Of a stretch of 64,000 bases of DNA, positions 18,604 to 64,000 are shown one piece after another. The translations under genes were made by a program, and so were the position numbers. The DNA is from Desulfamplus magnetovallimortis (lineage in GTDB: Bacteria; Desulfobacterota; Desulfobacteria; Desulfobacterales; Desulfobacteraceae). The stretch is taken from assembly GCF_900170035.1 (NCBI RefSeq), contig NZ_LT828551.1:104163-168162 (forward strand), given 5' to 3'. Within the stretch, counting starts at the first letter, position 1. Every line of letters begins with the position of its first letter. The notes under the pieces are model-generated. The model searched no databases. It had not been told where the DNA came from and saw only the letters and a list, made by a program, of their open reading frames with translations.

Positions 18604-18615
18604 AATAAGTATCTT

Positions 18616-19017: not shown

Positions 19018-19307
19018 AAGTCTTCCTTCCAGTTATCACGGTCATACTTATCATGAGTCAAAATATGTCGTATATATAAGCGATTGAGTGAATAACGAAT
19101 ATATGCAACAAGCCTATAATTGTTTCCACCAATATTGAATACAACAAAGTTTCCAACAGTGTCGGCGCTTGGAAAGACTTTTTTGACATCCATGAATGAG
19201 GTAAAATTTTCTCGTTTCACGATACGATACCAATGCTGTAAGGAAGATTCCGCACAGTTATATTTTTGACAAAATTCACGAATTTTCTTGTAACTTATAA
19301 TGTGCAT
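18993..19307 (-). CDS. higB: HigB toxin (RelE/ParE superfamily)
   Basis: MHIISYKKIREFCQKY...KVFPSADTVGNFVVFNIGGNNYRLVAYIRY....YIRHILTHDKYD closely follows E. coli HigB. Confidence 0.85.
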   Translation of the reverse strand: MHIISYKKIREFCQKYNCAESSLQHWYRIVKRENFTSFMDVKKVFPSADTVGNFVVFNIGGNNYRLVAYIRYSLNRLYIRHILTHDKYDRDNWKEDLWFKRTSN

Positions 19308-19841
19308 AACAACCTTAAAGATTGGTGGTATCGCAATGCATCAGCAAACAGGGGTGCTTATTAGAAAATTTCTATAACATGTTGATATATAAAAATTTTA
19401 ATGTATCATTGCGATGCACTCGCTATTTGATGCACTCGCTATATGAGTGTGTATTAAAAAATACAGATTATAAAATTTACTGTCAATAGAATTCTCAAAT
19501 AGAGAATACAATTGTTTTTAACAAACATCCGCCATGTACATTGTTATAACGTACATGGCGGATTTCCACCACAATCGAAGGAATTAAAGTCATTTTAAAT
19601 ACAGTCAGTTAAAGAGACTTTCTTATCCCCCCCATGTTTGCTGACGCATCACAACTAAACATGAAAGTTGTTATATATCAGCATGTTATGGAGATTTTCT
19701 AATAAATAAAGCACTTAAAACAGTAATGGCAGCCACCGGACTTTTGAGAGCGGGGCTGCCATATGATTTTATGATTTAATGCATTTTTATTTTCTGTGTA
19801 ATGCATTATTGCAAAGCACTTTGTGTTAACTCCTGTGCAGA

Positions 19842-20576
19842 TTATTCAATCCCAAGCAGCTCCACCTCAAAAATCAATGTTGATCCTGGTGCAATGGAAC
19901 GTCCAGCTCCTCTGTCACCATAGGCAAGATCAGAAGGGATATAAAGCATCCATTTAGAACCCACGGTCATAAGCTGCAAGGCCTCAGTCCATCCCTTGAT
20001 AACTCCGTTGACCTTAAAAGATGCAGGTTCTCCCCTTTTGTAGGATGAATCAAATTCATTGCCGTCAATTGTGGTTCCTTTATAGTGGCACTTGACAGTA
20101 TCTGTGAGCTGGGGTTTTTCACCATCACCTTGAGTGATTACTTTGTACTGAAGCCCACTTTCCAGTGTAACAATACCATCTTTTCCCTTATTCTCTTTAA
20201 GGAATGCCTCTCCAGCTTCTTTGTTAGCTTCGGCAGATTCCTTCATTTGAGCCATCTGTTTCTCTTTCATTTTATTCTGAAAAGTCATCATTGTCTGCTG
20301 CATCTCTTCTTCAGAGAGGCTAGATTTCCCTTCGTGACTCTCTGTGATGCCTTTAAAAAACATGTCCAGATCAACTTCATAATCTCTTTTAAGATTCTGC
20401 CCTATATTATATCCAAGGGCATAACTTATTTTTTCCTGCTCGGTTTCCATCTTTTTTTCTTCCTTGTCCGCTGCAAAAACCTGGGCACCAGAACAAAGAA
20501 TAACTCCGGATGCAAGCAGTGCAAACGCTTTTTTTACATTAAACATTAAAATCCTCCTGAAAATTAATATAAACAA
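19842..20576 (-). CDS. FKBP-type peptidyl-prolyl cis-trans isomerase (periplasmic, FkpA/FklB-like)
   Basis: Signal peptide; C-terminal FKBP domain GVIKGWTEALQLMTVGSKWMLYIPSDLAYGDRGAG..IAPGSTLIFEVELLGI. Confidence 0.85.
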   Translation of the reverse strand: MFILIFRRILMFNVKKAFALLASGVILCSGAQVFAADKEEKKMETEQEKISYALGYNIGQNLKRDYEVDLDMFFKGITESHEGKSSLSEEEMQQTMMTFQNKMKEKQMAQMKESAEANKEAGEAFLKENKGKDGIVTLESGLQYKVITQGDGEKPQLTDTVKCHYKGTTIDGNEFDSSYKRGEPASFKVNGVIKGWTEALQLMTVGSKWMLYIPSDLAYGDRGAGRSIAPGSTLIFEVELLGIE

Positions 20577-20630
20577 ACTAAAACAACTTGGTATCAGATA
20601 TGTGCATTAATATCAATCATTGATTGATTG

Positions 20631-48977: not shown

Positions 48978-51518
48978 TCACGCACCACAACATTTTTTAT
49001 ACTTTTTGCCACTTCCGCAGGGGCATGGATCATTTCTGCCGGTTTTTGCTTCAGTTCTTTTTACAGGCTCCCTTGGTGCAGAGCTGTCAGAATGGGAAAG
49101 CGTCAGTTTTTCATTTTTGGGTTTACGAATCTGATTGAGGTCATCGGGGTTTACAATCTGGATTCTGAACAAAATATTTAAAGTCTGCTCTCTTATACGG
49201 TCAATAAGACCCTGGAACATCTCAAATCCCTCTTTCTTGTAGATAACCAGAGGATTTTGCTGGGCATAGCTTCTAAGGCCAATACCCTCCTTGAGATGAT
49301 CCATATTAAGAAGGTGATCTTTCCAGAGAGAGTCAACAGTCTGAAGCATGACATATTTTTCAAGCTGCCGAAACTCTGCATCTCCTATCAGTGTCTCCTT
49401 TTCCACATATTTTTCAAGAGCTTTATCTACCATGATACGACCTGCTTTTTCGCCGTCAATATCTTCCCTGTCGAAATCTGAAGGTTGGAGAGTGCAATTA
49501 AACTGACGGTTAAAAGTATCACACAACCCCTCAATATCCCAATCCGGCACAGGTAGTTTCTCATCTTCAAAAATCTCAAGAATATCCCAGCAGCGCTCTT
49601 CAATCATCTGGAGAAATTCATCCTTGAGATTTTCCTCTGTAAGGGCCTGACGCCTCTGACGGTATATGACCTCACGCTGCTGATTCATTACATCATCATA
49701 CTCAATGAGCTGCTTTCTTATCTCAAAGTTATGACCCTCCACCTTGGACTGGGCATTTTCAATTGCACGGCTTATGAGATTGTGTTCAATAGGCTCCCCT
49801 TCATCTATGCCAAGACGATCCATTATGGAGGATATTCGCTCTCCTCCGAAAATTCTCAAAAGATCATCTTCAAGGGATAGATAAAAACGGGAAGACCCCT
49901 CATCCCCTTGACGGCCGGAACGACCCCGAAGCTGGTTGTCAATTCGCCTTGATTCATGGCGGGATGTTCCAAGTATATGAAGACCGCCAAGCTCTTTGAC
50001 ACCTTCTCCGAGAACAATATCGGTTCCCCTTCCTGCCATGTTTGTGGATATTGTAACAGCACCCTTCTGGCCTGCTGCTGCAACAATTTCAGCTTCTGCC
50101 TTGTGATGTTTGGCGTTCAACACAGTATGTTTGATATTTCTTTTTTCAAGCTGCCTGCTTAAATCTTCAGAGACATCAATTGATATGGTTCCCACAAGGA
50201 CAGGTTGACCTTTTTTATGAAGCCTGATTATCTCTTTAATGGCAGCTTCATATTTCTCTTTTTTGGTTTTGTAGATAACATCAGGCATATCTTTTCTGAT
50301 CATGGGTTTATGGGTAGGAATGACCAGAACATCAAGGTTGTAAATCTTTTTGAACTCTGCTGCTTCGGTTTCAGCGGTTCCTGTCATGCCGCTGAGTTTT
50401 TCATACATTCTGAAATAGTTCTGAAATGTAATGGATGCAAGGGTCTGATTCTCGTTGGCAATCTTCACATTTTCCTTGGCTTCAAGGGCCTGGTGAAGCC
50501 CCTCACTGTAACGCCTACCCTCCATAAGCCGGCCTGTGAATTCGTCAACAATAACAACCTCGTCATTTTTGACAATATAATCGACATCCCGTTTAAAAAG
50601 GGTATGTGCTTTAAGTGCCTGATTCAAGTGGTGGAGGGTTTCTATATTTTTGGGATCATAGAGATTTTCCACACCAAGAAGTTTTTCGCCCTTTGCAACA
50701 CCCTCCTCCGTAAGAGTAACACTTTTAGCTTCTTCGTCAATGGAATAATCAGTCTCTGCCACAAATGAAGGGATGATTGTGTTAACCTGATGATACATAT
50801 GAGTTGATTTCTCAGCAGGACCTGAAATGATAAGAGGCGTTCTTGCCTCGTCAATGAGGATACTGTCCACCTCATCCACAATTGCAAAATTAAGCTCTCC
50901 CTGGGCAAGGGACTCTCTGTCAAACTTCATGTTATCCCGAAGATAATCGAACCCGAACTCATTGTTTGTGCCATAGGTGATATCTGCGCTGTAAGCTTCC
51001 CTTCTCTGGGCATCATTGAGATTATGTATAATGACCCCCACCCGCAGGCCAAGAAAGCTATATATGGCATCCATCCATTCGGCATCTCGTTTTGCAAGAT
51101 AATCATTCACAGTCACAACATGAACGCCCCTGCCTGAAAGGGCGTTAAGATAAGCAGGCAGAGTTGACATTAGAGTCTTTCCCTCACCGGTTTTCATCTC
51201 TGAAATCATTCCACGATGAAGGGCTATCCCACCTATCAACTGAACGTCATAGTGACGCATTCCAAGGGTTCTTACAGCAGCCTCACGTACAATTGCAAAG
51301 GCTTCGGGGAGAAGATCGTCAAGTGATTCAGAGCTTTCAGGGTTTTTACCCTTTGAAAGACGAGCTCTGAATTCAAGGGTCTTTGCAGCCATCTCTTCAT
51401 CTGTCAGAGCTTTCATTCCGTCTTCAAGTGCATTGATCTGCTCCACCAGAGGCATGATTTTTTTTATCTGACGGTCATTGTTTGATCCAAATATTTTTGT
51501 AAGTAAACTGAATACCAT
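48978..51518 (-). CDS. secA: Preprotein translocase ATPase SecA
   Basis: [10 protein letters not shown] Walker A; C-terminal zinc-binding [14 protein letters not shown]. Confidence 0.95.
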
Positions 51519-51747
51519 ATACTTTATTTCGCCTTTGCTTTACCCTGAGGGCAAAAACCTTAAAAACCCCTGCTTTGCAAGAGTTGTTAGTTATTTTGCT
51601 CCATTAATTATTTTTAACCCTGTTATTCCGGAGTATCAGGGTTGTACGTTAGGAATTGATTTTTAATAACTTGTCCATTCAACTCGCCCCAGCCACATTT
51701 TACAGACTTGCAAGGGGGAGTTTGGGTAAGTTAATTAAACCCAATTA

Positions 51748-52950
51748 CTATATTGCTCCCGGAATTATTTTCAATCCTGTTGCCTCATCAAGACCGAACA
51801 TAAGATTCATGTTTTGAACGGCCTGACCTGCTGCACCTTTGAGTATATTATCAATGGCAGAAATAATAATAATACGTTTTGAGGATTCGTCCACCCACAA
51901 TCCAATGTCACAAAAATTTGTACCCCTCACATGGGCGGTATCAGGAAACATACCTTCAGGAAGAATCCTTACAAAAAAGTTGTTCCTATAGGTATCTGCA
52001 AGGGTCTCTCTGATACTATTTTCCGTTGCATTATCAGAAATACCTGCATATATGGTGGTCAGCATTCCCCGACTCATGGGAAGAAGGTGAGGCACAAAGG
52101 TTATCTTGATATTATTGACATTACCGTCTGAAGTGCCAAACGCCACCTTATCATTTTCCGCAATTGCTGGTTTCAATCTGTGATGATCCTGAATTTCAGC
52201 TTCAACTTTGTCATTACCCTGAATTTCAGCTTCCATTTTGTCATTACCCTGAATTGCAGTTTCAGCTCCAGCGTTTTTATCAGGGGCATGGGCTGTAAGA
52301 ATCTCTTCCATTTCAGGCACATGGCGATGAGAACCTACCTTGTAGGCTTTAAAGGACTCTGTCACTTCACAATAATGAGAGGTAAGGGAGAGGGAGCGTC
52401 CTGCACCGCTTACACCTGACTTGGAATCAGAAATGATTCCTTCTGTTCTTACAAGGCCATCTCTGACAAGGGGAATAATCGGCAGAAGAAGGCTTGTGGG
52501 GTAACATCCGGGGTTACCGACAAGATCTGCCTTTTGTATTTCATCTCTATATATTTCACTTAAACCATAAACAGAGTGCTTCAAAAGATCAGGAGCACTG
52601 TGTTTCTGGTATGTTTTTTCATAGGTTTCAAGGCTTTTAAAACGAAAATCAGCAGAAAGATCAATGACCTTGATACCATTTTCCAGAAAAAGAGGGGCAT
52701 ACCCCATGGAAATTTTGTGGGGAAGGGCAAGAAAAACACAGTCCACCTTGCCCTTGAGTTCATCCGGATTCATATCCTGACATGTAATATCAACAACACC
52801 CCTCATTGAAGGAAAAATATCTGCAATATTTTTACCGCCATACGAACGTGAGGTTACAGATGTAAGTTCGGCATCAGGGTGTCCTGTAATAAGTTTGACA
52901 AGCTCAGCTCCGGTATATCCGGTTGCTCCGGCAACAGCAGTTTTTATCAT
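51748..52950 (-). CDS. argC: N-acetyl-gamma-glutamyl-phosphate reductase, carrying an approximately 55-aa repetitive in-frame insertion
   Basis: AVAGATGYTGAEL N-terminus; active-site GNPGCYPTS; insertion ETAIQGNDKMEAEIQGNDKVEAEIQ encoded by a 36-bp tandem repeat at 52185-52275. Confidence 0.85.
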   Translation of the reverse strand: MIKTAVAGATGYTGAELVKLITGHPDAELTSVTSRSYGGKNIADIFPSMRGVVDITCQDMNPDELKGKVDCVFLALPHKISMGYAPLFLENGIKVIDLSADFRFKSLETYEKTYQKHSAPDLLKHSVYGLSEIYRDEIQKADLVGNPGCYPTSLLLPIIPLVRDGLVRTEGIISDSKSGVSGAGRSLSLTSHYCEVTESFKAYKVGSHRHVPEMEEILTAHAPDKNAGAETAIQGNDKMEAEIQGNDKVEAEIQDHHRLKPAIAENDKVAFGTSDGNVNNIKITFVPHLLPMSRGMLTTIYAGISDNATENSIRETLADTYRNNFFVRILPEGMFPDTAHVRGTNFCDIGLWVDESSKRIIIISAIDNILKGAAGQAVQNMNLMFGLDEATGLKIIPGAI

Positions 52951-53061
52951 TTCATATCCTGAATAAATTTGTTATGTTATTGAAGATTAAGCAATTACTC
53001 TACCAGAGAGAAATCATCTTTTCAAGCTCTGAGTGCAACACAAGGCTGAACCATAATCTTT

Positions 53062-53135
53062 TACCGTGAAAATGGATACAAATTTTCATATTCGGGGGTG
53101 GCCGAAAATCGTCCATGACGGTTTACCGTGAAAAT
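53062..53135. repeat. Conserved about 65-bp element (copy 2 of 7455-7518), flanked by a 14-bp direct repeat tttaccgtgaaaat (53060-53073 and 53122-53135)
   Basis: Direct alignment and direct reading. Confidence 0.6.
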
Positions 53136-53172
53136 AACTATCATTTTTATGGTTGGGGGTGATAATACACAA

Positions 53173-53757
53173 TCATGCCCGTTTACTGTACAAACCATCG
53201 GTAGCTATATGGTTCACACCATGGGAGATTAAGTATTCTTTGTTCTTTTTGATTTGTTGAAGATAGAAGTCGATGCGGTTTTCTTCTTCTTCACCAATTT
53301 CATAGCTGGAAGGGGTTTGCTCAACAGAGAGATTGTATGCGGTATTGTAGTCCAAATCGATAATTGCGAGGGATGAAATCTCTTGACCTTTTTGGGACTT
53401 ACCCGCAACGCCACTCCAGAATTTGTCTATCCCATAGCTATGCTTACCTATTTTGGGAACATAAGAAGCATCTATAGCAGCTATTCGTTTATTGGTATTT
53501 GGGATAGTGTCCATAATCAGCAGGTGATTGAAAAGTGTAAAATCGAATGATTTTCTAAAATTTCTCGAATAACTTTTCTCATTCAAATTGCTATAGCGCC
53601 CCATGTTGCGAAAGTTCATTCGACCTTGTAGTAGCATTATAGTTGAAAAAAGTGTCAGTAAAAATTTATGCTGATGTTTGGTTATTTTGGACAAAATACA
53701 GTTTATTGTTCTCATAGAGATCTCCTTTGTTGGACTGTAATGTTGTGTGTAAAACAT
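53173..53757 (-). mobile_element. IS701-like (IS4 superfamily) DDE transposase, C-terminally truncated remnant
   Basis: AAIDASYVPKIGKHSYGIDKFWSGVAGKSQKGQEISSLAI resembles the IS701 DDT...K.GK.S.GV..QY.G..GK..NCQ block; the second Asp region ATDGLYS is present; the catalytic Glu region is absent. Confidence 0.55.
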
Positions 53758-53840
53758 AATCTTCCAATTTTGGAAAACTCTTGTCCATCCTTTTTTTTAT
53801 GTTTCAAAAAAACTGTCCGAACTATTGGTTTAGACACTGA

Positions 53841-56800
53841 TTATAAATTTAGTTGCTGGTGATTCAAATAGTAATAAAGACCTTTTTTGCCCATAAGCTC
53901 TTCATGGTTTCCCTGCTCAACCACCTCACCCTTATCAAGGACAATAATGGTATCTGCACTGCGAACAGTACTCAGACGATGGGCAATGATTATGGCGGTT
54001 CTGTTTTTTAATATTGTATCCATGTTTTTTTGTATAGCCTGTTCAGACTCAATGTCCAGAGAACTTGTGGCTTCATCAAAGATAATTATTCCAGGATTTT
54101 TATATAGAACACGGGCAATGGCAATCCTTTGCATCTGTCCACCTGATAACTGCAATCCAGATTCTCCAACCTTTGTTTCATAACCATTGGGGAAATTAGA
54201 GATAAAATCATGTGCATTGGCAAGCTTTGCTGCGGATATAATTTTTTCCATTGTGGCAGAAGGATCATCCGAAGAGATGTTGTCCCCAATTGTTCCACTG
54301 AATACAAAGCTGTTCTGGAGTACATAACCCACATTGGATCTTAAAAAGGAAAGATTTAAATTTTTGATATCAAAACCACCAACTGATATTGAACCTTCAT
54401 TGGCATGAAAAAACCTTGCTATGAGGTTTACAAGGGTTGTTTTACCTGATCCGCTGCGTCCCACAATGGCACATCTTGTTCCAGCAGGAATCTCGATATT
54501 GATATTGGATAGAATCCAGGGGTCATCAACACCGCCATATCTAAAAAATACCTGTTCAAATCTTATATTGCCGGAAAGCTTCTCCATGACTATGCCCGGG
54601 GATTTACCATCCCTTTCACCATATTCGGTTTTAGCTGCAAAAACATCATTGAGGCGGTCAACCGAGACCAGGGTCTCCTGTAGTTGATCCCATACAGTTA
54701 TAATTCGATTAATGGGGGTGACAACGCTTCCCATGAGGGCCATGAAAGCCATGAGTTCACCAACTGAAATATTATGTTTTATAACTTCATGGGCACCATA
54801 CCAAAGGATAATAGTGGAACCAAGTGTTCCCATGAAATCGCCAAGGGAGTGGAAATATATTTTTAGATGGCTGAGGGAAAACTCTATATTGATACTTTTT
54901 ATAAATTTGTTTTCCCATTTCCATCTTATCTGATTTTCAAGGTGCATCGCTTTTACTGTATCTATGGCCTTAATGGATTCAATCATATGGGATTTTGCTT
55001 CAGCTCCGGCAGCAAAGGCATCAATATTGAGCTTTTTTAAAAACGGAGTAAATCCAAGGGTGATGGCAATGAAAAAAGGGATAAACAAGATCACAAGAAG
55101 AGTCATATTGGCGTTATAATAAAGCATAAGCCCTAAATAGATTATGATGAGAAAGGTATCCAGAACAACGGTCAAAGCTGTCTGAGTCATAAAAGTTCTT
55201 ATTTTTTCATTTTCACCAAACCTTGATACAAAATCGCCAATTTTTCTGGCCTTAAAGTAACCAAGGGGCAATGCCAATAGATGTTTGTAAAATGAAACCA
55301 GCATACTTATATCAATTTTCATGCTTGTATGTACAATTAGGTACTGCCTGACAATGGTTATCAATATTCTGAATATAAGAACAATAAGCATTCCTATTAA
55401 CATAATGTTAAGAAAGGATATGTTTTCGTGGTACAATACCTTATCAACTATATTCTGGGTAAAAACAGGGGTGGCAAGGCCAAGTAAATTCAGGAGCATG
55501 GACGCAAGGAAAATCTCTGCAAGGATCATTTTATGGGGAGTAACAAAACCAATAAATTTTTTCAGGGAAGATTGTTTATCCACCTCCTGGTTACCCAAAA
55601 GTGGTGTGGGTTCAATAATAAGGGTGATTCCATTCCAGTTATCTGAAAAATATTCCCTGTGGTATTTTCTGAGACCCATGGCCGGGTCTGCAACCCATAC
55701 ATATTTTTTTGAAACTTTGTAAACAACACAATAGTGGTAACCCTGCCAGTGAATAACACAGGGCAACTTTATATCAAGGAGCCCATCAAATTTGATTTTT
55801 ATCCCCCTGGTCAAAAAGCCCAGGTGTTCAGCTGCCGAGGCAAGGTTGGAAAGGGTTACACCTGAGTTATCTGCGTGGGAAAGCTCGGAAATTCTGGCCA
55901 GGGAAAATTTTTTCCCATAAAAACGGGAAATCATCACAAGACAGGCAGGGCCGCAGCCCATCTCGTCATGCTGTCTTACAAAGGGAAAACGCAATCCGTG
56001 GTATTTTTTTTTCGCTGTGGATGGGGATGATGTATCTATGGTGTTCTGCTCTACCTCCGGTGGCTTTTCCCTGTAATCCCGGGTTTGATTCAATTCCCCT
56101 TTGTTGTGTTCAGGTTGTGTGTCTGTATATATATTTGGGGTGATATTGGGGGGAGATATGGAGCGATACTGGTGCAGTCTGTCGGAGAATAGCGATTTAA
56201 GATCCGGGGATTTCTGGATCAGTTCTTTAAATGTGTCTCTGCTCAATGCAAAAAGATGACAATTTGTCAGACAGACAACATCTGCATATCGTGGGCTATC
56301 CTCAATTAGTGCCTTTTCCCCGAAAAATTCCCCCTGGTGAAGAAAATTAATTATACTTTGATCTCCATCTTCCCATTTTATAACCTTTAATTTCCCCGAT
56401 TCAATTAGATAAAATTTATCAGGCTCATCCCCCTGCCTGAAAATCCCTTCCCCTGCCATAAAGGATTCTGGGTTGAAATTTTTCACAATCTGCTGTACAT
56501 CCTTGGGCTTTAGAGGAGATAAAAGGGAGCAACCCTTTAAGAAAAGCTGAATTGATGTGGAATGGATAAACTTATCAAAATAACCACGGATTTCAGGTTT
56601 GCTGAAAACAAATTTTTCAAAGATTTCATTATCTATGGCTATCAAAAGAGATTGTTCAACAGCCCTTGCTGCTGCATTTCTGGGTCTATGGGAAATCAGG
56701 GCAGTTTCCCCAAAGTGATCTCCACGGGTTCTCACCCCCATGTTGATCTCTTTACCGCTGTTGTCCTTGAAAATAATTCTGATTCTGCCGCTGTATATGA

Positions 56801-56960
56801 TATAAAAGCAGTCACCTGCATCACCCTGGTCAAAAATCAAATCCCCGGCTTGTGATGATACAAACCTTGAGTTTTTGGCGATATACTGCAATGACTCATC
56901 TGATAAAATTGAAAATAGCCACAATTTTCTTAAAAATAATTCAGTATCGTGCATCTGCAT
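53841..56960 (-). CDS. Peptidase-containing ABC transporter (PCAT): two N-terminal cyclic-nucleotide-binding domains, C39 Cys-peptidase, 6-TM ABC permease, ABC ATPase
   Basis: cNMP-binding-like ..FDQGDAGDCFYIIYSGRIRI.. and ..FRQGDEPDKFYLIESGKLKV..; C39 HDEMGCGPACLVMISRFYGKKFS; Walker A GRSGSGKTT; signature LSGGQMQRIAIAR. Confidence 0.85.
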   Translation of the reverse strand: MQMHDTELFLRKLWLFSILSDESLQYIAKNSRFVSSQAGDLIFDQGDAGDCFYIIYSGRIRIIFKDNSGKEINMGVRTRGDHFGETALISHRPRNAAARAVEQSLLIAIDNEIFEKFVFSKPEIRGYFDKFIHSTSIQLFLKGCSLLSPLKPKDVQQIVKNFNPESFMAGEGIFRQGDEPDKFYLIESGKLKVIKWEDGDQSIINFLHQGEFFGEKALIEDSPRYADVVCLTNCHLFALSRDTFKELIQKSPDLKSLFSDRLHQYRSISPPNITPNIYTDTQPEHNKGELNQTRDYREKPPEVEQNTIDTSSPSTAKKKYHGLRFPFVRQHDEMGCGPACLVMISRFYGKKFSLARISELSHADNSGVTLSNLASAAEHLGFLTRGIKIKFDGLLDIKLPCVIHWQGYHYCVVYKVSKKYVWVADPAMGLRKYHREYFSDNWNGITLIIEPTPLLGNQEVDKQSSLKKFIGFVTPHKMILAEIFLASMLLNLLGLATPVFTQNIVDKVLYHENISFLNIMLIGMLIVLIFRILITIVRQYLIVHTSMKIDISMLVSFYKHLLALPLGYFKARKIGDFVSRFGENEKIRTFMTQTALTVVLDTFLIIIYLGLMLYYNANMTLLVILFIPFFIAITLGFTPFLKKLNIDAFAAGAEAKSHMIESIKAIDTVKAMHLENQIRWKWENKFIKSINIEFSLSHLKIYFHSLGDFMGTLGSTIILWYGAHEVIKHNISVGELMAFMALMGSVVTPINRIITVWDQLQETLVSVDRLNDVFAAKTEYGERDGKSPGIVMEKLSGNIRFEQVFFRYGGVDDPWILSNINIEIPAGTRCAIVGRSGSGKTTLVNLIARFFHANEGSISVGGFDIKNLNLSFLRSNVGYVLQNSFVFSGTIGDNISSDDPSATMEKIISAAKLANAHDFISNFPNGYETKVGESGLQLSGGQMQRIAIARVLYKNPGIIIFDEATSSLDIESEQAIQKNMDTILKNRTAIIIAHRLSTVRSADTIIVLDKGEVVEQGNHEELMGKKGLYYYLNHQQLNL

Positions 56961-56987
56961 AAATTCAAATCCTAAAGCCCATAAAAA

Positions 56988-58568
56988 TTAATCACAGCAG
57001 ATAATTTCTGTTTGATTAATAAACCAGGATAGCTCCATTCTGATATGATAATATTTTCCCACAAGCATAAGATACTCCTGTTTAAGTGCTAAAAGTTCAT
57101 ATTCTGATGCTATAAGTTCTTGCTGGTAATCAAGGAGATTAATTACTGTTGTTCTTTCCTGAACAAGCCTTTCAACTTCATTTTCAAGATTCTGCTTTGA
57201 AAGGGCGACAATCTCACGGGAATATGCAATTTGCCTGTCAAGGTCAGTGAGGTCATCATATATTCCAATTATCTCTTTTTTAAGTTCCGCAGTTCTTTTT
57301 TTAATGCTGTTATCAATATTTGTTATCTGTTTTTTTACAATTGAAATCCGTGCATGGTTTCCATCCTGTTTCAGGGGAATTTCAAAGGATGTTTTAAAAG
57401 CCATGAAATGGTTGGCAGTATCAATATCTTTAAAAGCTCCATCCAATCCATTTGGGTCATATCCATTGATACCGGCCTGGAAAACAACGTCAAGTTTTGG
57501 TTTTGCCCTGTCCAAGGCAATAAGAAGATCCTGCTCAAGTTCCTTTTTACTATATTCAAGGGAGATTAAAAAAGAATCCATTGCCAACACATGTTCAATT
57601 GTCTGTTCCTTTGAAGCAGGTTTAAACAAGTTAATTAATGATTTTGAACATGTCACAAGTTGCAGGGTTCCATCCAATCGGTATTGGGAACTGTTATTGT
57701 AAATTAAAAGGAAAAGATTTTGTAGATAGCCATCCCTTTGATTTTCCAGCTCTAAAATCTTTCGCTCCTGGAATATATGGGCGGCTTTCATTCTGTTAAG
57801 ATCTGTGATGGTCATATATCTAAGGGCTACTTTTTGCTTTATGATTTTATAAAGCTTAAAGGTTCTATCACGAATTTTTTTTTGTAAACTTAATCTTTTG
57901 TTAATAAAATAGAGATAGTAGTATTGATTGAACATCTTAAATATTGTGTTGCTTAAGATAATCTTATTTTCCTCTTCTGATCTTTTTAAATTTATTTTTG
58001 CTTTTTTAATGGGGGCATTTGTTATTTCTTTTCCCCTTCCCTGCATAACAGGCTGGTCATATTCCATGAAAAATGAGCTTTGATATTCTTTTGGGCTTTC
58101 AATGGAATAGATATATTCTATCTCTTCCATTGAAGCTGTTACATGGATAGATTCCTTGCCGCCAAAAATATTTTTTCGGCTTATCCCTGTAGTATATAAT
58201 TGAATATCCCATGCAAGATAGTTATCCACATTTAGGCTGTTATATCGCCTCCTTTCAAAGGTGCTGTCTGCCTGAAATCGGGGAATGAAGATCTCTTCCT
58301 GGATTGATAGGTTTTTTTCTGCAATATCCCTTGAGACAGTGCTGCTCTGGATATCCATGCTATTTTTAAGGAGATCATTTTGGGCTGAGTAGAGAGAAAG
58401 GGAAGATAAGGTCTTTGCATTATCATTATCCAAGGCATAATTATCCCGTGCATAATATGGACTATCCTTTTCCATGGCAAAAGTAATATTAAAGGAAAAA
58501 GAAATGGTAGAAAGAAACAGAGTTAGTAATGTTAAACTGAATAATATTAAAATAGATTTTCCTGTCAT
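56988..58568 (-). CDS. TolC-like outer-membrane efflux protein (putative), co-oriented with and upstream of the PCAT gene
   Basis: Signal peptide; two long heptad-rich helical halves; context. Family assignment is tentative. Confidence 0.5.
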   Translation of the reverse strand: MTGKSILILFSLTLLTLFLSTISFSFNITFAMEKDSPYYARDNYALDNDNAKTLSSLSLYSAQNDLLKNSMDIQSSTVSRDIAEKNLSIQEEIFIPRFQADSTFERRRYNSLNVDNYLAWDIQLYTTGISRKNIFGGKESIHVTASMEEIEYIYSIESPKEYQSSFFMEYDQPVMQGRGKEITNAPIKKAKINLKRSEEENKIILSNTIFKMFNQYYYLYFINKRLSLQKKIRDRTFKLYKIIKQKVALRYMTITDLNRMKAAHIFQERKILELENQRDGYLQNLFLLIYNNSSQYRLDGTLQLVTCSKSLINLFKPASKEQTIEHVLAMDSFLISLEYSKKELEQDLLIALDRAKPKLDVVFQAGINGYDPNGLDGAFKDIDTANHFMAFKTSFEIPLKQDGNHARISIVKKQITNIDNSIKKRTAELKKEIIGIYDDLTDLDRQIAYSREIVALSKQNLENEVERLVQERTTVINLLDYQQELIASEYELLALKQEYLMLVGKYYHIRMELSWFINQTEIICCD

Positions 58569-58828
58569 AAGAAATCAGCTCCCATGATCATATTTTGCTG
58601 CTTTTCACCAGGTGTTGTTAACAGAATATGACACAACGTCAATATAGGTTTATATATTGATATTAAATCTTGACAAAAAGAGAATTAAAGTGTGATAAAT
58701 AAATATTGATGCCCACCATAACTTAATTTTTCTGTTTTTTGAATTGTTATATGCAAATATTTGATATCCTATGATATCCTATGCGATACTTTGCCTTTGT
58801 CTATTGTTTTTTATGAAAAAATATTTAC

Positions 58829-58845
58829 TTGGCATATAAAATGCT
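58829..58845 (+). promoter_or_regulatory. Candidate sigma-54 (-24/-12) promoter tTGGCAtataaaaTGCt about 185 nt upstream of the precursor gene; an adjacent direct repeat gatatcctat x2 (58763-58782) lies upstream
   Basis: GG-N10-GC spacing read directly; speculative. Confidence 0.25.
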
Positions 58846-59028
58846 TTTATAAAAATACAAACAGGATAACTTACCTAAAGCATAACAATGAAGGGTAGTG
58901 TCATAAAAGTGTTGATTTCTTTTTGTGAAAGCCCTGCTGAATCAAGGTTTGTGAAGAGCTCATCAACATATTTGGGACACCACCCAATGAAGTTCATATT
59001 AACACAAATAAAATAAGGAGAAATAATC

Positions 59029-59253
59029 ATGGCACGTATTCAAATTAAAGATCTGGCAGAGAATCAGACAATTTCAAAAGAAGACCTCAAAAGAGTAAAG
59101 GGCGGTTTTGTTATGATGGATAATGTGTTCAGTGGGATTACACCTGAATATAAATTCTCACCTGAATATAAATTCTTTAACACTGCCCAGTTTATCACTT
59201 CAGGTCAACTGGTGGAAAATATGGAAAGTATTTTATATGAAAAATGGTTCTAA
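59029..59253 (+). CDS. Double-glycine (GG) leader peptide precursor: 26-aa leader plus 48-aa Cys-free aromatic-rich core with PEYKF(S/F) repeat
   Basis: Leader MARIQIKDLAENQTISKEDLKRVKGG fits the GG-leader consensus (hydrophobic at -4, -7, -12; acidic at -8/-9; GG at -2/-1). Strong SD aaggag 8 nt upstream. A cognate C39 transporter sits 460 bp away. Confidence 0.7.
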   Translation: MARIQIKDLAENQTISKEDLKRVKGGFVMMDNVFSGITPEYKFSPEYKFFNTAQFITSGQLVENMESILYEKWF

Positions 59254-59307
59254 ACACCCATTTACCAGTTCATATGAAAAATGGATCTAAACACCCATTT
59301 ACCAGTT
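59234..59307. repeat. 37-bp tandem direct repeat (2 copies) spanning the precursor stop codon (tatatgaaaaatggttctaaacacccatttaccagtt / catatgaaaaatggatctaaacacccatttaccagtt)
   Basis: Read directly. Confidence 0.9.
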
Positions 59308-59370
59308 GCTGCCATCCCCGATGGTGAAAACACGATCTATTTTGACATCCTTCATATCAACTCAAAATTA

Positions 59371-59398
59371 GTTTACATTTTTCGAAAAAAGTGTAAAC
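59371..59398. promoter_or_regulatory. Near-perfect 28-nt palindrome gtttacatttttcgaaaaaagtgtaaac between the precursor and the downstream gene (intercistronic hairpin)
   Basis: Read directly; no U-tract follows. Confidence 0.4.
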
Positions 59399-59464
59399 CG
59401 ACAAATGAAAGATCCCTGTATTTTAATGATAAATTATTAGATTATGGGTTTAGAATGCCAATAA

Positions 59465-60568
59465 ATGGAATGGACAGACCAAATGACAACTGCACGAATA
59501 ATTGATTATCTTCCTGATATTTATAATGGAATCCTACCCGATTTTTTTGAAAAAACAATTCCAAGGGAAACGGCTGCCACATGTGAAAGTTGTGCCATGT
59601 GGCAGCCTGCAACAACATCGGGCAAGGAAAACAAGACTTTGAGATCCTTTTCCAGGGAAAGCAAATGCTGCACCCATTATCCCAATATCCCCAACTATCT
59701 CCTTGGGGGATTTCTCTCCCATAAAAAAAGTGACGATGCCAAAAAAATCCTGGATATTATTTCAAATAGCCCAGGTCACACCCCAAGGGGTATAGTTCGC
59801 CCCAAAAAAATTCAATTCCTTATGGAGAATTCCCAACGCAGCTTTTTTGGAAGATCAAAAACCCTTATATGTCCATTTTTTGACAAGGAAAAAGGATATT
59901 GCACCATAAGACCCTTTTGGGATGCTGTGTGCAACACCTGGTTTTGTAAGTATGTCAAAGGTTATGATGGATTTCAGTTCTGGGTGGCGATTCGGAAATA
60001 TTTAAGCTATGTGGAACAGAGTTTAATACAATTTGCCATGTACAACTTGAATTGTAATCCCGAAAATATAGAAAACCTGGTTTCCAATGAACAGCCAGGG
60101 CCTTTATCACTGGGAGATCTTGACGATTTGCCTCTGGATAGAAATAGGTATCTTTCGCAATGGGGAAAATGGGCTGGACGTGAAATAGAATTTTATAAAA
60201 AATGTTATGAACTGGTCTTAAAAATGACAAGGCCGCAGTTTGAAGAGATTACAGGTATTACCCAGAAAATAAACCTTGCCGTTGTAAAATCAAAATACAG
60301 TGATCTTTTCTCCACAGATCTGCCCAGGGTATTAAAGAAAAATTCGTCCATGGTTGAAGAAAAGATAGAAGGGGATCAATATCTGATCATGGGTTATTCC
60401 ATGATCGACCCATTTCTAGTACCCAAAAAACTCTATGAAATACTAAGTTTTTTTGATGGTAACCAGGATGTTGAAGCTACCTGCAAAATGATAAAAGAGC
60501 ATACCGGTTTTGTCCCTGACCATGACCTGCTTGTGGAACTTTACCGCTTCAGGATTCTTACTACTTGA
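59465..60568 (+). CDS. Cysteine-rich protein of unrecognised family (C-x2-C...CC and C-x9-C-x9-C-x4-C clusters), co-transcribed with the GG-leader precursor; candidate peptide-modifying or accessory enzyme
   Basis: CESCAMW...KCCTHYP and CPFFDKEKGYCTIRPFWDAVCNTWFC; weak resemblance to YkgJ/FliB-type CxxCxxCC metal-binding proteins, not confident. Confidence 0.5.
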   Translation: MEWTDQMTTARIIDYLPDIYNGILPDFFEKTIPRETAATCESCAMWQPATTSGKENKTLRSFSRESKCCTHYPNIPNYLLGGFLSHKKSDDAKKILDIISNSPGHTPRGIVRPKKIQFLMENSQRSFFGRSKTLICPFFDKEKGYCTIRPFWDAVCNTWFCKYVKGYDGFQFWVAIRKYLSYVEQSLIQFAMYNLNCNPENIENLVSNEQPGPLSLGDLDDLPLDRNRYLSQWGKWAGREIEFYKKCYELVLKMTRPQFEEITGITQKINLAVVKSKYSDLFSTDLPRVLKKNSSMVEEKIEGDQYLIMGYSMIDPFLVPKKLYEILSFFDGNQDVEATCKMIKEHTGFVPDHDLLVELYRFRILTT

Positions 60569-60643
60569 ATCTATATATTTTGAGTCTATGCTTTTTGAGT
60601 TTTTTAATTTTTGAATTGATTGTACCCTGTTTGCATTGTTCTC

Positions 60644-60667
60644 CCCCTCTCCAGAGATGGAGAGGGG
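60644..60667. terminator. Hairpin cccctctcca-gaga-tggagagggg between convergent genes, followed by a G-run
   Basis: Read directly. Confidence 0.4.
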
Positions 60668-60713
60668 CAGGGGGGTGAGGTTTGGCAAACTGGATGATCA
60701 AAAAACGGAACAC

Positions 60714-61121
60714 TTACATATTTCCATTGAGCCATATTTGAAAAGCCATCTCTCGAACCATATTTTTTGTATCGTCATGGGATAGAAGAGCATCCATGGT
60801 GATCTCTTTTTCAAGCTTGTCCTTTAGGTGTTCAATAATGATACTTGTCTCAATATGATTTTCCAGTGCTTCAAGGGTAACTCCTTTGGATTTTATCCAT
60901 GCTTCTGTGTCCTCAGCCTTATTAAGTCCATGGGCAGCCCTGAAGCTGTCAAAGGCCCCTTGCAGTTCCTGGTCAGTTACTTCCATCCCCATTTTTTTTG
61001 CATTGTCAGCAGCAACCTTTCTTTGGAAAAGATTTGCCAGAGCAGGCTTTAATTTGTCTGTAATTTTAAGATAGTCAAATATTTCATTCTGGGTAAACTC
61101 CAAATCTTTTATTTTAATCAT
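60714..61121 (-). CDS. SurA/PrsA N-terminal chaperone-domain-like protein (no isomerase domain)
   Basis: VTDQELQGAFDSFRAAHGLN parallels ISVSDEELTQFSDHYRLITGLN of the adjacent parvulin protein's N-domain. Confidence 0.45.
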   Translation of the reverse strand: MIKIKDLEFTQNEIFDYLKITDKLKPALANLFQRKVAADNAKKMGMEVTDQELQGAFDSFRAAHGLNKAEDTEAWIKSKGVTLEALENHIETSIIIEHLKDKLEKEITMDALLSHDDTKNMVREMAFQIWLNGNM

Positions 61122-61140
61122 TGCGTGCCTCCTTAAATCT

Positions 61141-61770
61141 TTACGATGTTTTTTTGCTATCCGTAACAGTAAATGGTTGATTTATTATTCCACTGCACCA
61201 TTCATTCCAAATAACCTCTTCAACAACCCTTTGTACCTCCTCACTTTCAGGCGATGGTTTTATAAGTTCTTCAAGTTTTACAATATAATGGAAACCATCA
61301 ACCTCAAGGGGATCTATTATCGTGCCAGGCTCGGATGTGAAAATTTTGGATGCTAAATCAGAAGGAAGCATATTTCTGTATATAATTCCAACATAACCGG
61401 ATTTCCACTTGAGATCATCATCTGTGTTGTATTGCCTTGCAAGGGTATGAAAATCCTCTCCATCCTCTTCAATTCGCATCATAAGTTCATTTGCAAGGTT
61501 CTTTGAATCAACTATGATTTGGGATATCCTTGCCTTTTCAAACTCTGCTCTGTGTGCCATATAATAATCAAGAACACTCTTTTGCGTGGCCATCTCTTTT
61601 TTTATCTTTGAAATTAATATTTTTGCTTCACATAAATCTTCATATATATCCTGGTTAATGGCAATGCGATGGAAAAAGGCAAGGGTTTCATCTGCTGAAT
61701 TTAAACCTGTTATTAACCTGTAATGATCTGAAAATTGTGTCAGCTCTTCATCTGAAACAGATATACCCAT
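61141..61770 (-). CDS. Parvulin-type peptidyl-prolyl isomerase with N-terminal chaperone-like domain
   Basis: ARISQIIV...EDGEDFHTLARQYNTDDDLKWKSGYVGIIYRNMLPSDLASKIFTSEPGTIIDPLEVDGFHYIVKLEE matches the parvulin/rotamase fold pattern. Confidence 0.7.
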   Translation of the reverse strand: MGISVSDEELTQFSDHYRLITGLNSADETLAFFHRIAINQDIYEDLCEAKILISKIKKEMATQKSVLDYYMAHRAEFEKARISQIIVDSKNLANELMMRIEEDGEDFHTLARQYNTDDDLKWKSGYVGIIYRNMLPSDLASKIFTSEPGTIIDPLEVDGFHYIVKLEELIKPSPESEEVQRVVEEVIWNEWCSGIINQPFTVTDSKKTS

Positions 61771-62045
61771 CTCCTCTGCCTTTTGGAAAATCTCCTTGAT
61801 ATGTACAATTTCAGATAAAATCTTGTCAGCCCTGCCTGAAAAAAAGAGATAGGTTATTATTTCTTCTGGTTGAATTGCATTATATTGAACAGAATCAGAC
61901 TGAGTAGAACCGGATTTTGCAGAACCGGATTGAATGGAGAGATGTTTTTTTTATGAAAATTCCATGTTTTTACAATTTGGAGGTTTTCATTATTGTTTTG
62001 GGGAAGTGATTCGTCATGGCAGTTATACAAAATTTCCATATATTT

Positions 62046-62255
62046 ACTCCTTTGATATATCATCATCAAGGTCAGGGTACAATTCCTTTGTACAATCAGG
62101 GCAGATTCCATGGCTAAAATGGGCATTGGAATGTTCCATGATAAAAGTTTCCAGTTGATTCCAATATCCACTGTCATCCCTGATTTTTTTGCAGGATGCA
62201 CATATTGGGATTAAACCGCTCAAAGTCTTGACCTGATTTAAGGCAGTCTGGAGTT
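62046..62255 (-). pseudogene. Start-less 70-codon remnant encoding the Cys-rich module ...PICASCKKIRDDSGYWNQLETFIMEHSNAHFSHGICPDCTKELYPDLDDDISKE*, the same domain as the C-terminus of the response regulator at 12168-12875
   Basis: Manual translation of the minus-strand frame; the frame opens right after a TAG with no usable start codon; the overlapping track ORF (61857-62201) is in a different frame. Confidence 0.45.
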
Positions 62256-62389
62256 GCTAAAAAATGATTTTGCTGTTTCAAGGGCAATCAATTTCGTTTT
62301 TTGCTTTTCATATTTAACATTTAAACATAGCAAGATTGAAACTATGACAATCCATATTGAAACTGTAATGTATGTAATTAATTTGATTT

Positions 62390-63703
62390 TCATGGGGTTT
62401 TAAAAGCAGATACCTTATTATAAAAAATGGAAAGCAGGCTTTTCTTTTCGGTAATCATTTCAGCAACTGCAGTCATTCCGGGTTTTAAGGGACAAGATCG
62501 TCCATGTACATTAAATGATCTATTATTTAATGCCCCTTTTACCTTATATACAAACACTCCATGTTTTTCCTCAATGGCTGAGGGAGATATGGCAATTACA
62601 TATCCGTTAATTGTTCCATAATCCCTATGGGGAAATGCATCAAATTTATATTTTACAGGCATATCAACTTCAATGAAACCAATATCTTTGTTTGCAACTG
62701 TGATATCCATATAATATGGTTCATCTGCTGGAATAACAGTACATAAAACAGTTGATGGGTTTACATATTCTCCTTTGTTTAAAAAAAATAGCCTGGAAAC
62801 AATGCCGGATTTTGGTGTAAAAATGTTATACTCCCCTGTTTTTTCATTGGAAAGTGCATTAACTTTACTGGAACCATTAAATTGCAATTCATTTTGGAGC
62901 TTTCTAAGCTTTGCCTGTAAGGAGTTCATGGTATTTTTCTGTTCAAGCAATATGTTTTCTATTTTTTTATCAATAATATTTTCTTGATTTTTCTTTTCAG
63001 CCTCTGTTTTTTTAATATTTTGGGCAATAATATCCTTCTCTTTTAGAAAAATACGTTTTTGTGAATCAAGTTTTTTAACTTCGGTTTTTGCCAATTCAAG
63101 GCGTCCTTTTACGCTATTATATTCAGCAATGGATGTTAATTGCTTTTTGAAAAGTATCTGGGTATTTAAAAACTCCTGCTTTCGATTTTCGATCTCTTTT
63201 TTCCAGTAAGTAAAGTCACTTTGAACCTGTTCAAGGGATATGGATATTTTTTCCATGGAAAGAGCAAAGGAGTGTTTCATATTTTCCAGCTCATCTTTTA
63301 AGTACTCTATCTCTGTTTCCATGGCATCAATAAGGCTTTTATAGTATCCTTTTTTAAATTCAATCTCTTCCTGAACAGATTTCAGTTCTGAATATTGGGA
63401 CATATTGATTCTGGTTTTTATGGTAAAAAGTAGATCTCCTTCATCCACAAAAGCACCATTTTCTATGGATATCTTATCTATAAAACCATGAAATTCAGAT
63501 ACCACCTGCATTTCATGGGACAAGGGGCGGACAATAGCACTGCCTTCACGGATGATATCCACTTTACAAAGGGCGGAATAGAACAAAATAGATATAATTG
63601 CCAAAAAAATAATGTAAAGTATCCCCCTGGCATAGATGGAGGGCATACGCTTTAATTGCTCAACAACAAAAAAATTATCATAATTTTCATTGGTTGATAA
63701 CAA
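62390..63703 (-). CDS. HlyD-family membrane-fusion (type I secretion / bacteriocin export) protein
   Basis: N-terminal TM, long coiled-coil, C-terminal beta-barrel ...GMTAVAEMIT.KKSLL..F..; family-typical. Confidence 0.85.
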   Translation of the reverse strand: MLSTNENYDNFFVVEQLKRMPSIYARGILYIIFLAIISILFYSALCKVDIIREGSAIVRPLSHEMQVVSEFHGFIDKISIENGAFVDEGDLLFTIKTRINMSQYSELKSVQEEIEFKKGYYKSLIDAMETEIEYLKDELENMKHSFALSMEKISISLEQVQSDFTYWKKEIENRKQEFLNTQILFKKQLTSIAEYNSVKGRLELAKTEVKKLDSQKRIFLKEKDIIAQNIKKTEAEKKNQENIIDKKIENILLEQKNTMNSLQAKLRKLQNELQFNGSSKVNALSNEKTGEYNIFTPKSGIVSRLFFLNKGEYVNPSTVLCTVIPADEPYYMDITVANKDIGFIEVDMPVKYKFDAFPHRDYGTINGYVIAISPSAIEEKHGVFVYKVKGALNNRSFNVHGRSCPLKPGMTAVAEMITEKKSLLSIFYNKVSAFKTP

Positions 63704-63712
63704 TTGAGTCCA

Positions 63713-64000
63713 CTATATCCTCTGTTTTAGTTCCTTCCATAAATCTACAAAAGCCAGTGTTTCCTTTTCATCGGGGGCAAATTCAATCAAAGGCTTCTGA
63801 TGGATACCCATCTGTTCAATCAGGGATCTATATGGTATTGATACAGATAAACATGTGGGATCATGGGCACATTTTTCCATGGTCTCCCTGTGCATCTTTT
63901 TGCGGCTATCCAACATGTTAAAGAAAAACAATATTTCAGGTTTTTGACGAAGTGTACTCAAATGTTCCCTGATCTGGTTCAGGGATTGAATGGATAAAAT
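63713..64000 (-). CDS. ParA/MinD-family ATPase, C-terminal part only (gene continues beyond the window end)
   Basis: ...FFNMLDSRKKMHRETMEK....IPYRSLIEQMGIHQKPLIEFAPD resembles ParA C-termini; the frame is open to the window edge. Confidence 0.5.
   Translation of the reverse strand: MLSIQSLNQIREHLSTLRQKPEILFFFNMLDSRKKMHRETMEKCAHDPTCLSVSIPYRSLIEQMGIHQKPLIEFAPDEKETLAFVDLWKELKQRI

Follow-up and report, generated by a model that had tools for sequence, protein, structure and literature searches.

A long-type peptidase-containing ABC exporter of Desulfamplus magnetovallimortis with two canonical cyclic-nucleotide-binding cassettes: secretion cluster, relatives and plausible gating by a second messenger

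Introduction

Whether a second messenger acts directly on the machine that cleaves and exports a peptide is the question raised by a gene of Desulfamplus magnetovallimortis. The gene lies in a stretch of 64,000 nucleotides (NCBI RefSeq assembly GCF_900170035.1, contig NZ_LT828551.1, positions 104,163 to 168,162 of the forward strand), the whole of which is called the window here. It encodes a peptidase-containing ATP-binding cassette (ABC) transporter (PCAT) of the long type, in which two domains of the cyclic nucleoside monophosphate (cNMP)-binding family stand before a C39 peptidase domain and before the ABC core. Nucleotide control of processing or export is the natural inference from this domain reading. 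The best explanation, as far as sequence comparison goes, is that the exporter is a working long-type PCAT and the putative inner-membrane engine of a tripartite peptide export system resembling type I secretion, and its gating by cAMP or cGMP appears plausible.

The architecture as such was already on record. Long-type C39 ABC transporters, with an N-terminal extension of 300 amino acids, were distinguished by Dirix 2004 (as cited in PMC3140520), and the extension was identified as CAP_ED by Wang 2011 (PMC3140520). Moreover, in the cyanobacterial groups I, II and VI, long-type transporters accompany HlyD and a rotamase called 'SurA' (PMC3140520; PMC4558948). The fusion, which a preliminary description of this DNA had held to be noteworthy, is published and very common (PMC3140520, PMC4558948), and the window gene adds another member to an already very widespread cNMP-C39-ABC design. 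The literature found on these proteins is limited to two cyanobacterial genome-mining papers and one paper on HetC, the only member of the long-type design studied in them by experiment.

There are hundreds of homologues, among which the window gene is singled out only by its two canonical cassettes. If the sensor binds cAMP or cGMP, it would offer a clean model of second-messenger gating in an ABC peptide exporter, and such gating, if true, would be a post-translational checkpoint on the release of bacteriocins or of ribosomally synthesized and post-translationally modified peptides (RiPPs), not demonstrated for any ABC exporter. A ligand result would bear on the timing with which bacteriocins, RiPPs or signalling peptides are released.

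Domain organisation and catalytic residues

The exporter is read from one uninterrupted open reading frame (ORF), with the same limits as in the preliminary description, and its parts are the following:

53841..56960, minus strand: long-type PCAT gene, 1039 aa, with the order cNMP-cNMP-C39-transmembrane domain-nucleotide-binding domain (cNMP-cNMP-C39-TMD-NBD)
56607..56858, minus strand: first cyclic-nucleotide-binding domain (CNBD-A), aa 35-118, Pfam PF00027, 77.3 bits when scanned separately
56211..56468, minus strand: second cyclic-nucleotide-binding domain (CNBD-B), aa 165-250, Pfam PF00027, 92.1 bits when scanned separately
55995..56162, minus strand: linker from the sensor tandem to the peptidase, aa 267-322, predicted local distance difference test (pLDDT) ~30 in the AlphaFold 2 (AF2) model
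55605..55988, minus strand: C39 cysteine peptidase domain, aa 325-452, Pfam Peptidase_C39, E 1e-36
54714..55517, minus strand: ABC exporter transmembrane domain, aa 482-749, Pfam ABC_membrane, E 3e-46
53844..54512, minus strand: ATP-binding cassette, Pfam ABC_tran at aa 817-966, E 4e-30

From the N-terminus, CNBD-A and CNBD-B are followed by a linker of about 55 residues; then come the C39 peptidase, the ABC membrane domain with its six helices and the ATPase. The two cyclic-nucleotide-binding (CNB) domains have a combined E value of 9e-48 in the full protein, and the Pfam gathering cut-off for cNMP_binding is 27.5 bits; the preliminary reading of two such modules ahead of a C39 peptidase and an ABC core was therefore confirmed. 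The linker is probably disordered in the model, and its sequence departs from the family consensus PPxPYxExIKQELA.

The cysteine of GCGPACLVMIS, which had been put forward as catalytic, is C336 (codon 55953-55955), and it is invariant in an alignment of 19 homologues. Together with Q330, H409 and D425 it makes up the proposed catalytic residues of the peptidase; in the same alignment Q330 and D425 are also invariant and H409 is conserved in at least 90%. In the wider family of 59 non-identical long-type N-termini from many phyla, the Gln and the Cys are each kept in 58/59 and the His and the Asp each in 57/59. In the ATPase, Walker A (GRSGSGKT) starts at residue 834, LSGGQ at 938 and Walker B (IIIFDEA) at 958, its D962-E963 pair being unchanged among the 19 homologues, and the H-loop motif AHRLS, whose histidine is H994, stands at 993. 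Judged by these residues, all catalytic motifs of the exporter are intact.

When residues 322-1039 were compared with PDB sequences, the matches were PCAT1 (4ry2, E 1e-145), HlyB (1.6e-143) and ComA (4.5e-123). The full-length AF2 model (pLDDT 74, predicted template-modelling score (pTM) 0.38) has six long membrane helices (465-511, 514-563, 573-615, 617-672, 675-727 and 733-774), and Foldseek with this model placed HlyB and PCAT1 at the top, the latter with ~36% identity over ~720 columns. The full-length PCAT and HlyB targets among the PDB matches all have at most 750 residues, and no match by sequence or fold in the PDB joins a CNB domain to a PCAT in one solved chain.

The exporter is 100% identical to a D. 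magnetovallimortis protein labelled 'putative Leukotoxin translocation ATP-binding protein LktB'. Taken at its word, the label would make it an HlyB/LktB-type transporter of a large RTX-like toxin, with the small double-glycine (GG) peptide of the cluster incidental, and the HlyB model TIGR01846 (type_I_sec_HlyB) is indeed the best NCBIfam match by E value; among the fold matches, too, HlyB ranks near the top. The C39-like domain of HlyB-type transporters has no catalytic Cys, whereas the window exporter has Q330, C336, H409 and D425, all of them conserved; TIGR01846 reaches 625.1 bits against a cut-off of 725.55. Moreover, the cluster encodes a peptide with a canonical GG leader, whose family accompanies homologues in many phyla, and no RTX-type gene was found among the ORFs of 50000-64000. 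Transport of a large toxin is thus very improbable. The 'LktB' label is misleading and unsupported, because the catalytic C39 residues are present and the TIGR01846 cut-off is not reached, and peptidase-containing, cNMP-domain ABC exporter is a better description. Two other NCBIfam models also fall short: TIGR01193 (bacteriocin_ABC), a subfamily model built on short-type members, is narrowly missed (510.1 bits against 523.85), and TIGR03796, for the NHLP/Nif11 export ABC1, is not reached (539 bits against 853.3).

The cyclic-nucleotide-binding cassettes

Both CNB domains contain a phosphate-binding cassette (PBC), the feature on which the preliminary description had made its reading of the N-terminal region depend:

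56661-56714, minus strand: PBC-A, aa 83-100, FGETALISHRPRNAAARA, with G84-E85...R94-N-A
56271-56324, minus strand: PBC-B, aa 213-230, FGEKALIEDSPRYADVVC, with G214-E215...R224-Y-A

The spacing is canonical in both, with Gly-Glu, an Arg nine residues past the Glu and then x-Ala, and in HMMER alignments the two cassettes line up residue for residue with those of the cGMP-dependent protein kinase (PKG). Among the best sequence matches of the sensor are Plasmodium PKG and the regulatory subunit of protein kinase A (PKA-R) of Toxoplasma, at E ~1e-28 (HMMER), the cassettes of both lying opposite those of the exporter.

Among the 19 close homologues, G84 is invariant at site A and E85 and R94 are conserved in at least 90%, while at site B F213, G214 and E215 are invariant and R224 is conserved in at least 90%. 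In the wider family, of which 57 members were scored for site A, the cassette of CNBD-B keeps Gly in 59/59, Glu in 53/59 and Arg in 48/59, and that of CNBD-A Gly in 56/57, Glu in 55/57 and Arg in 33/57. Examples of lineages that have lost a cassette Arg are Paenibacillus, Cohnella and Kapabacteria. Such counts indicate that the cassette residues are under selection across the 59 homologues; site B looks like the conserved ligand site, and site A, as the alignments read, varies across the family yet is intact in the window exporter and its close relatives.

The fold points the same way. An AlphaFold model of residues 1-270, built with 18 homologues, has a mean pLDDT of 86.6, and its best Foldseek matches are the CNB-A/B tandems of PKA regulatory subunits and PKG (E down to 5e-25), in alignments that cover both CNB domains. 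The two domains are oriented to one another differently than in PKA-R/PKG (template-modelling score ~0.45, root-mean-square deviation 12-16 A). In the model the sensor domains have the eight-stranded beta-barrel CNB fold with flanking helices. Because both cassettes are canonical, the window exporter is a reasonable candidate for, and well suited to, binding assays.

The secretion cluster

The genes around the exporter, up to the end of the window, are as follows:

53173-53757, minus strand: DDE_5 transposase fragment, 194 aa against a model of 272 positions, immediately downstream of the PCAT gene
56988..58568, minus strand: TolC-like outer-membrane efflux protein, Pfam OEP, E 2.4e-17, 27 bp upstream of the PCAT gene
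59029..59253, plus strand: double-glycine precursor, 74 aa, an ORF with a leader hidden Markov model match at E 1.1e-14
59029-59106, plus strand: leader of the precursor, aa 1-26, MARIQIKDLAENQTISKEDLKRVKGG, which fits LSxxELxxIxGG
59107-59250, plus strand: core of the precursor, 48 aa, with a TPEYKF-SPEYKF direct repeat
59465..60568, plus strand: Cys-rich protein, 367 aa, directly downstream of the precursor
60714..61121, minus strand: SurA_N-like protein, 135 aa, Pfam SurA_N_3, E 1.3e-5; TIGR04500 at 51 bits, below its cut-off
61141..61770, minus strand: PpiC-type rotamase, 209 aa, Pfam Rotamase, E 4e-10
62044-62223 and 62238-62393, minus strand: a 59-aa ORF and the 51-aa hydrophobic ORF preceding it, between HlyD and the rotamase
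62390..63703, minus strand: HlyD/AprE-type periplasmic adaptor, Pfam HlyD_3, E 2e-15; TIGR01843 at E 4e-43, below its cut-off
63713-63961: ORF bordering the cluster past HlyD, with no family match and the look of a ParA fragment by eye alone

The classical double-glycine leader follows the pattern LSxxELxxIxGG. The leader of the 74-aa precursor ends in ...ISKEDLKRVKGG, and its NCBIfam scan gave sub-threshold matches alone (TIGR04149 and leader_Chryseo). The predicted core is free of Cys and ends in YEKWF. A radical S-adenosylmethionine (SAM) enzyme gene, which most related clusters have, was not found in the part of the cluster within the window, which ends ~300 bp past HlyD.

Inspection of the sequences of the rotamase and the SurA_N-like protein revealed no signal peptide, and both proteins are therefore probably cytoplasmic. 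The rotamase ORF begins with ATG at 61770, and its homologues have ~247 aa; upstream of this ATG, in-frame coding akin to the first ~38 residues of the homologues runs to ~61880 (61771-61880, minus strand), a stretch in which ATG, GTG and TTG are absent. Either translation begins at a non-canonical codon or, perhaps, the start codon of the gene has been lost. The SurA_N-like protein begins with MIKIKDL, and the leader with MARIKIKDL; leader mimicry by this protein was considered and set aside as coincidence, the homologues beginning MAKNEIEIAVAEV.

As for the minor ORFs, the 59-aa one at 62044-62223 (minus strand) shows a zinc-ribbon-like CxxC...HGxCPxC pattern with weak Pfam matches only, and it and its neighbour at 62238-62393 are perhaps a remnant, or else encode a small regulatory protein. 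Scans for promoters and terminators were uninformative in this AT-rich region (52 promoter-like sites against 38 expected).

Distribution and family-wide gene context

More than 100 full-length proteins, 49-63% identical to the window exporter, share its design; where a source name is given, it points to Deltaproteobacteria, Nitrospirae, Planctomycetes, Latescibacteria, Kiritimatiellaeota or another group. Altogether, the design occurs in at least 95 clusters formed at 50% identity, and more than 50 loci in genomes of at least 14 groups of phylum or class level have it. In the cluster search, the first 460 residues were compared with 1.84 billion cluster representatives, giving 434 matches at E <= 1e-30; the best 150 of these include 78 CNB-CNB-C39-ABC proteins and 16 further CNB-CNB-C39 fragments. 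In the locus scan, the N-terminal alignment was run against one genome per species. Both CNB domains and C39 are covered in ~55 of the best 80 loci, whose hosts are Thermodesulfobacteriota, other Deltaproteobacteria, Latescibacterota, Verrucomicrobiota, Kiritimatiellota, Acidobacteriota, Armatimonadota, Elusimicrobia, Bacillota (Paenibacillus, Cohnella, Clostridia), Nitrospirae, Alpha- and Gammaproteobacteria, Gemmatimonadales, Actinomycetes and Kapabacteria. No cyanobacterial locus is among the best 80 genome matches.

The gene context is shared as well. HlyD adjoins the PCAT gene in nearly all related loci, and the OEP gene does so in L001, L003, L005, L007 and L010. The loci L001 (Nitrospirae), L003 (unclassified bacterium) and L005 (Kiritimatiellota) contain the same parts in variable order and spacing, namely OEP, cNMP-PCAT, HlyD, a 247-aa rotamase, small peptides and radical SAM enzymes, together with a SurA_N-like protein of 137-143 aa in L001 and L005; a SurA_N-like partner of 135-137 aa is conserved in L001, L007, L057, L086 and L087. 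The whole set of OEP, PCAT, HlyD, rotamase and SurA_N-like genes with GG precursors turns up again in Nitrospirae, Kiritimatiellota, Syntrophaceae, Latescibacterota and other lineages.

Furthermore, the long-type loci share a leader with the consensus MARIKIKDLPKD.K.S.EELKK..GG, found by profile search in 16 CNBD-positive loci, or 18 if L057, whose PCAT gene is cut at the start of the locus, and L088 are included. The cores of these precursors are highly variable, and several precursors per cluster are common. Long-type systems, together with a leader family of their own, reach far beyond cyanobacteria.

In this gene context the CNB domains could also be read as ligand-independent, acting as a dimerisation scaffold, as a docking site for the rotamase and the SurA_N-like protein, or as readers of the N-terminal leader half MARIKIKDLP. 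This conserved half is missing from classical short PCAT leaders. Moreover, CNBD-bearing PCATs are accompanied by the extended leader motif, by the rotamase and by the SurA_N-like protein, which stay constant while the maturation enzymes differ from locus to locus. Among the ORFs of the fetched loci, the rotamase was seen only beside CNBD-bearing PCATs, in agreement with PMC3140520, and all three parts were missing from the short-type loci (0/~24), a comparison set drawn from the single phylum Bacteroidota; the frequent loss of the Arg at site A fits a scaffold too. The conservation at site B is, however, hard to explain without a phosphate-bearing ligand, and a purely structural role is considered improbable.

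A sensing role for the CNB domains leads to a broader proposal: the long-type PCATs, their dedicated leader and the rotamase/SurA_N pair would form one second-messenger-gated secretion module, spread over at least 14 groups, in which cAMP or cGMP directly switches cleavage or export wherever both cassettes are canonical. In this general form the proposal is tentative, and the odds are somewhat against it.

A subset of the homologues, with 57-60% identity (P0051, P0059, P0065, P0068, P0071, P0072, P0078 and P0081-P0083), carries an extra N-terminal FHA domain before the two CNB domains, confirmed for P0071 at aa 24-86. This suggests that a phospho-threonine signalling input is added to the nucleotide sensor.

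The Cys-rich protein of the window has no Pfam match even at E 10 and no NCBIfam match at E 0.01. It belongs to an uncharacterised family of 38 clusters (360-377 aa, without domain annotation) which travels with the long-type system: its members always lie within long-type PCAT clusters, right after the GG precursor or beside B12-radical-SAM genes. Relatives are found in L086 (10001-11092), L087 (10001-11134) and L088 (10001-11083), and also in L057, L007, L023, L032, L051 and L013; two members are called 'Fe-S-cluster containing protein' by JGI. The protein is a candidate for a new peptide-maturation or accessory enzyme. A resemblance to the CxxC...CC pattern of YkgJ found no support from any tool and was dropped.

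Some precursor cores of related clusters (e.g. AFDAFLKIDGISGECQDDKHKSEADIISFSYPTR) resemble, by eye, the N-terminal strand of Hcp of type VI secretion. They are found in L086 (9715-9903), L007 (10665-10850), L057 (5042-5221) and L087 (7710-7877); the L086 precursor has a weak precomputed Pfam T6SS_HCP match, and the core encoded in the window is unrelated to them.

Cyclase and CYTH proteins of the window

Two other proteins of the window had been invoked in favour of local cyclic-nucleotide signalling:

32959-34713, plus strand: PAS plus class III cyclase protein, Pfam cyclase E 4.8e-20, hemerythrin 21.8 bits against a cut-off of 25.3
17020-17604, plus strand: CYTH protein, beginning with an EIERKF motif

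The first had been described as a PAS-cyclase-hemerythrin protein; its PAS and class III cyclase domains were recovered, while the hemerythrin part stayed below threshold. The best PDB matches of the cyclase domain are all adenylyl cyclases (OaPAC, CyaB and bPAC), and with OaPAC it shares the specificity positions, a Lys in KFIGD and a Thr before the DAVN motif. The protein is most likely an adenylyl cyclase, predicted to make cAMP. In the second, the CYTH domain is real, but cNMP synthesis finds no support, the only PDB matches being to NE1496 (2fbl, 3typ). We take NE1496 to be an inorganic triphosphatase and not a cyclase; a nucleotide cyclase was accordingly rejected, and the protein is better read as a triphosphate-tunnel triphosphatase.

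The argument for a local circuit fared less well. The PAS-cyclase and PCAT genes are separated by 19 kb, in which housekeeping genes such as secA and argC are found, and no protein of the 64-kb window other than the PCAT has a CNB domain. When the cyclase domain was searched against the ORFs of 88 related loci, only 4 matches were found near long-type PCATs, that is, within 10 kb in 4 of ~56 loci, and a conserved linkage of cyclase and exporter was rejected. Thus, production of cAMP by the organism is plausible, and neither the window nor the related loci hold evidence for a local circuit. Two loci stand apart: in L027, a Clostridia metagenome-assembled genome (MAG), a class III cyclase gene (7780-9588) ends ~400 bp before the long-type PCAT gene, and in L009, a Deltaproteobacteria MAG, one (18529-21333) starts ~5.4 kb after it. 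These two are exceptions to the general absence of linkage, and a pairing of cyclase and exporter might be tested on them.

Proposed mechanism and its weighing

The domain order, the catalytic and cassette residues, the fold, the gene context and the family-wide conservation can be assembled into a working model, in which the inferred elements are which substrate is exported and where it is cut, which ligand binds, and how and in which direction regulation works. The exporter would act as a homodimer whose C39 domains (Q330/C336/H409/D425) bind the 26-residue leader of the 74-aa precursor and cut after Gly26. Powered by ATP binding and hydrolysis, the 48-aa core would next pass through the HlyD adaptor and then the TolC-like outer-membrane protein, the rotamase, the SurA_N-like protein and the Cys-rich protein having probably handled or modified the precursor before export. 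The two PKA-R/PKG-like CNB domains, tethered by the linker, would couple cleavage or transport to a second messenger, most likely cAMP and otherwise cGMP, given two canonical cassettes and a genome with a gene for at least one likely adenylyl cyclase. Upon binding, a rearrangement of the CNB helices would alter the contact of the sensor with the peptidase or ATPase domains. To the chain as a whole, comprising leader cleavage, core export and a cyclic-nucleotide sensor that alters cleavage or transport, we give a probability of about 0.5.

Several points weigh against it. The cassette Arg is followed by Asn at site A and by Tyr at site B, where Ala, Ser or Thr is usual. The Arg of site A is missing in 24/57 family members, which makes site A, at least, dispensable in many lineages. 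To these is added the rarity of a cyclase gene near related exporters. The full-length monomer model, with its low pTM, yields no reliable inter-domain contacts between sensor and transporter. The HlyD-rotamase-SurA_N genes are set apart from OEP-PCAT, and the cluster order looks rearranged; this order, together with the lack of a radical SAM gene, the rotamase without a canonical start and the adjoining transposase fragment, means that the secretion system may be partly decayed. The transposase fragment and the rearranged order also suggest that the edge of the cluster was reshaped by a mobile element.

HetC of Nostoc sp. PCC 7120 counts both for and against the model. Heterocyst maturation depends individually on the Cys and His of its peptidase, on the Glu of its ATPase and on its cNMP region, and in favour of the model HetC loses its function in vivo when the cNMP region is deleted (PMC10986499). 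Against a cyclic nucleotide, the N-terminal fragment of HetC is stabilised by GDP, GTP and ppGpp, with a Kd of ~59 uM, and not by cAMP, cCMP, c-di-GMP or 2-oxoglutarate (PMC10986499). By analogy, the CNB tandem of the window exporter might sense a non-cyclic guanine nucleotide (ppGpp, GTP or GDP), which would tie export to the stringent response or the energy state. The non-canonical position after the Arg at both sites would agree with this, as would the trypanosome PKA-R among the fold matches, which binds nucleosides and not cAMP according to the PDB entry descriptions. The same trypanosome entries, however, show that changes in the cassette switch the ligand (in one entry the cassette is mutated, T318R being among the substitutions), and the window cassettes keep the Gly-Glu and the Arg that hold the ribose and the cyclic phosphate. 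Moreover, the affinity measured for HetC is weak, cGMP is absent from the ligand list of that paper (PMC10986499), and HetC has one Pfam cNMP domain (aa 60-146). A guanine-nucleotide sensor is thus judged unlikely, although it is the strongest competitor of cAMP or cGMP as the ligand.

Comparison with known systems

HetC, compared here by its published description, resembles the window exporter in its size (~1040 aa) and in the succession of an N-terminal cNMP region, a C39 domain, a six-helix ABC exporter and an ATPase. It differs in having a single Pfam cNMP domain instead of two, in lacking an adjacent membrane-fusion gene, where the window locus has HlyD and OEP, and in its role in heterocyst development, with ppGpp and GTP as measured ligands. 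The cyanobacterial long-type systems share with the window the CAP_ED extension of ~300 aa and, beside double-glycine precursors, the HlyD and 'SurA' rotamase genes, which are obligatory companions of the long-type transporters. The host is here a sulfate-reducing magnetotactic member of the Desulfobacterota, and the cluster has an additional TolC-like gene, a separate SurA_N-like gene and the Cys-rich accessory protein; its leader family (MARIKIKDLPKD...GG) also differs from the cyanobacterial long-type leaders.

PCAT1 of Clostridium thermocellum (4ry2, 6v9z, 7t54) has ~36% identity to the window exporter over the peptidase, membrane and ATPase domains. Both PCAT1 and Streptococcus ComA have the same proposed catalytic residues and the same class of GG-leader substrate, and for this reason cleavage followed by alternating access is taken as the working model; unlike the window exporter, neither has an N-terminal sensor.

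Finally, for the sensor, the best sequence matches among proteins of a single architecture are PKA-R and PKG, which likewise have two consecutive CNB domains with canonical cassettes, at 20-29% identity. Their output is a kinase, with an inhibitor segment that is N-terminal, whereas in the window protein the output is a transporter and the tether lies C-terminal to CNB-B.

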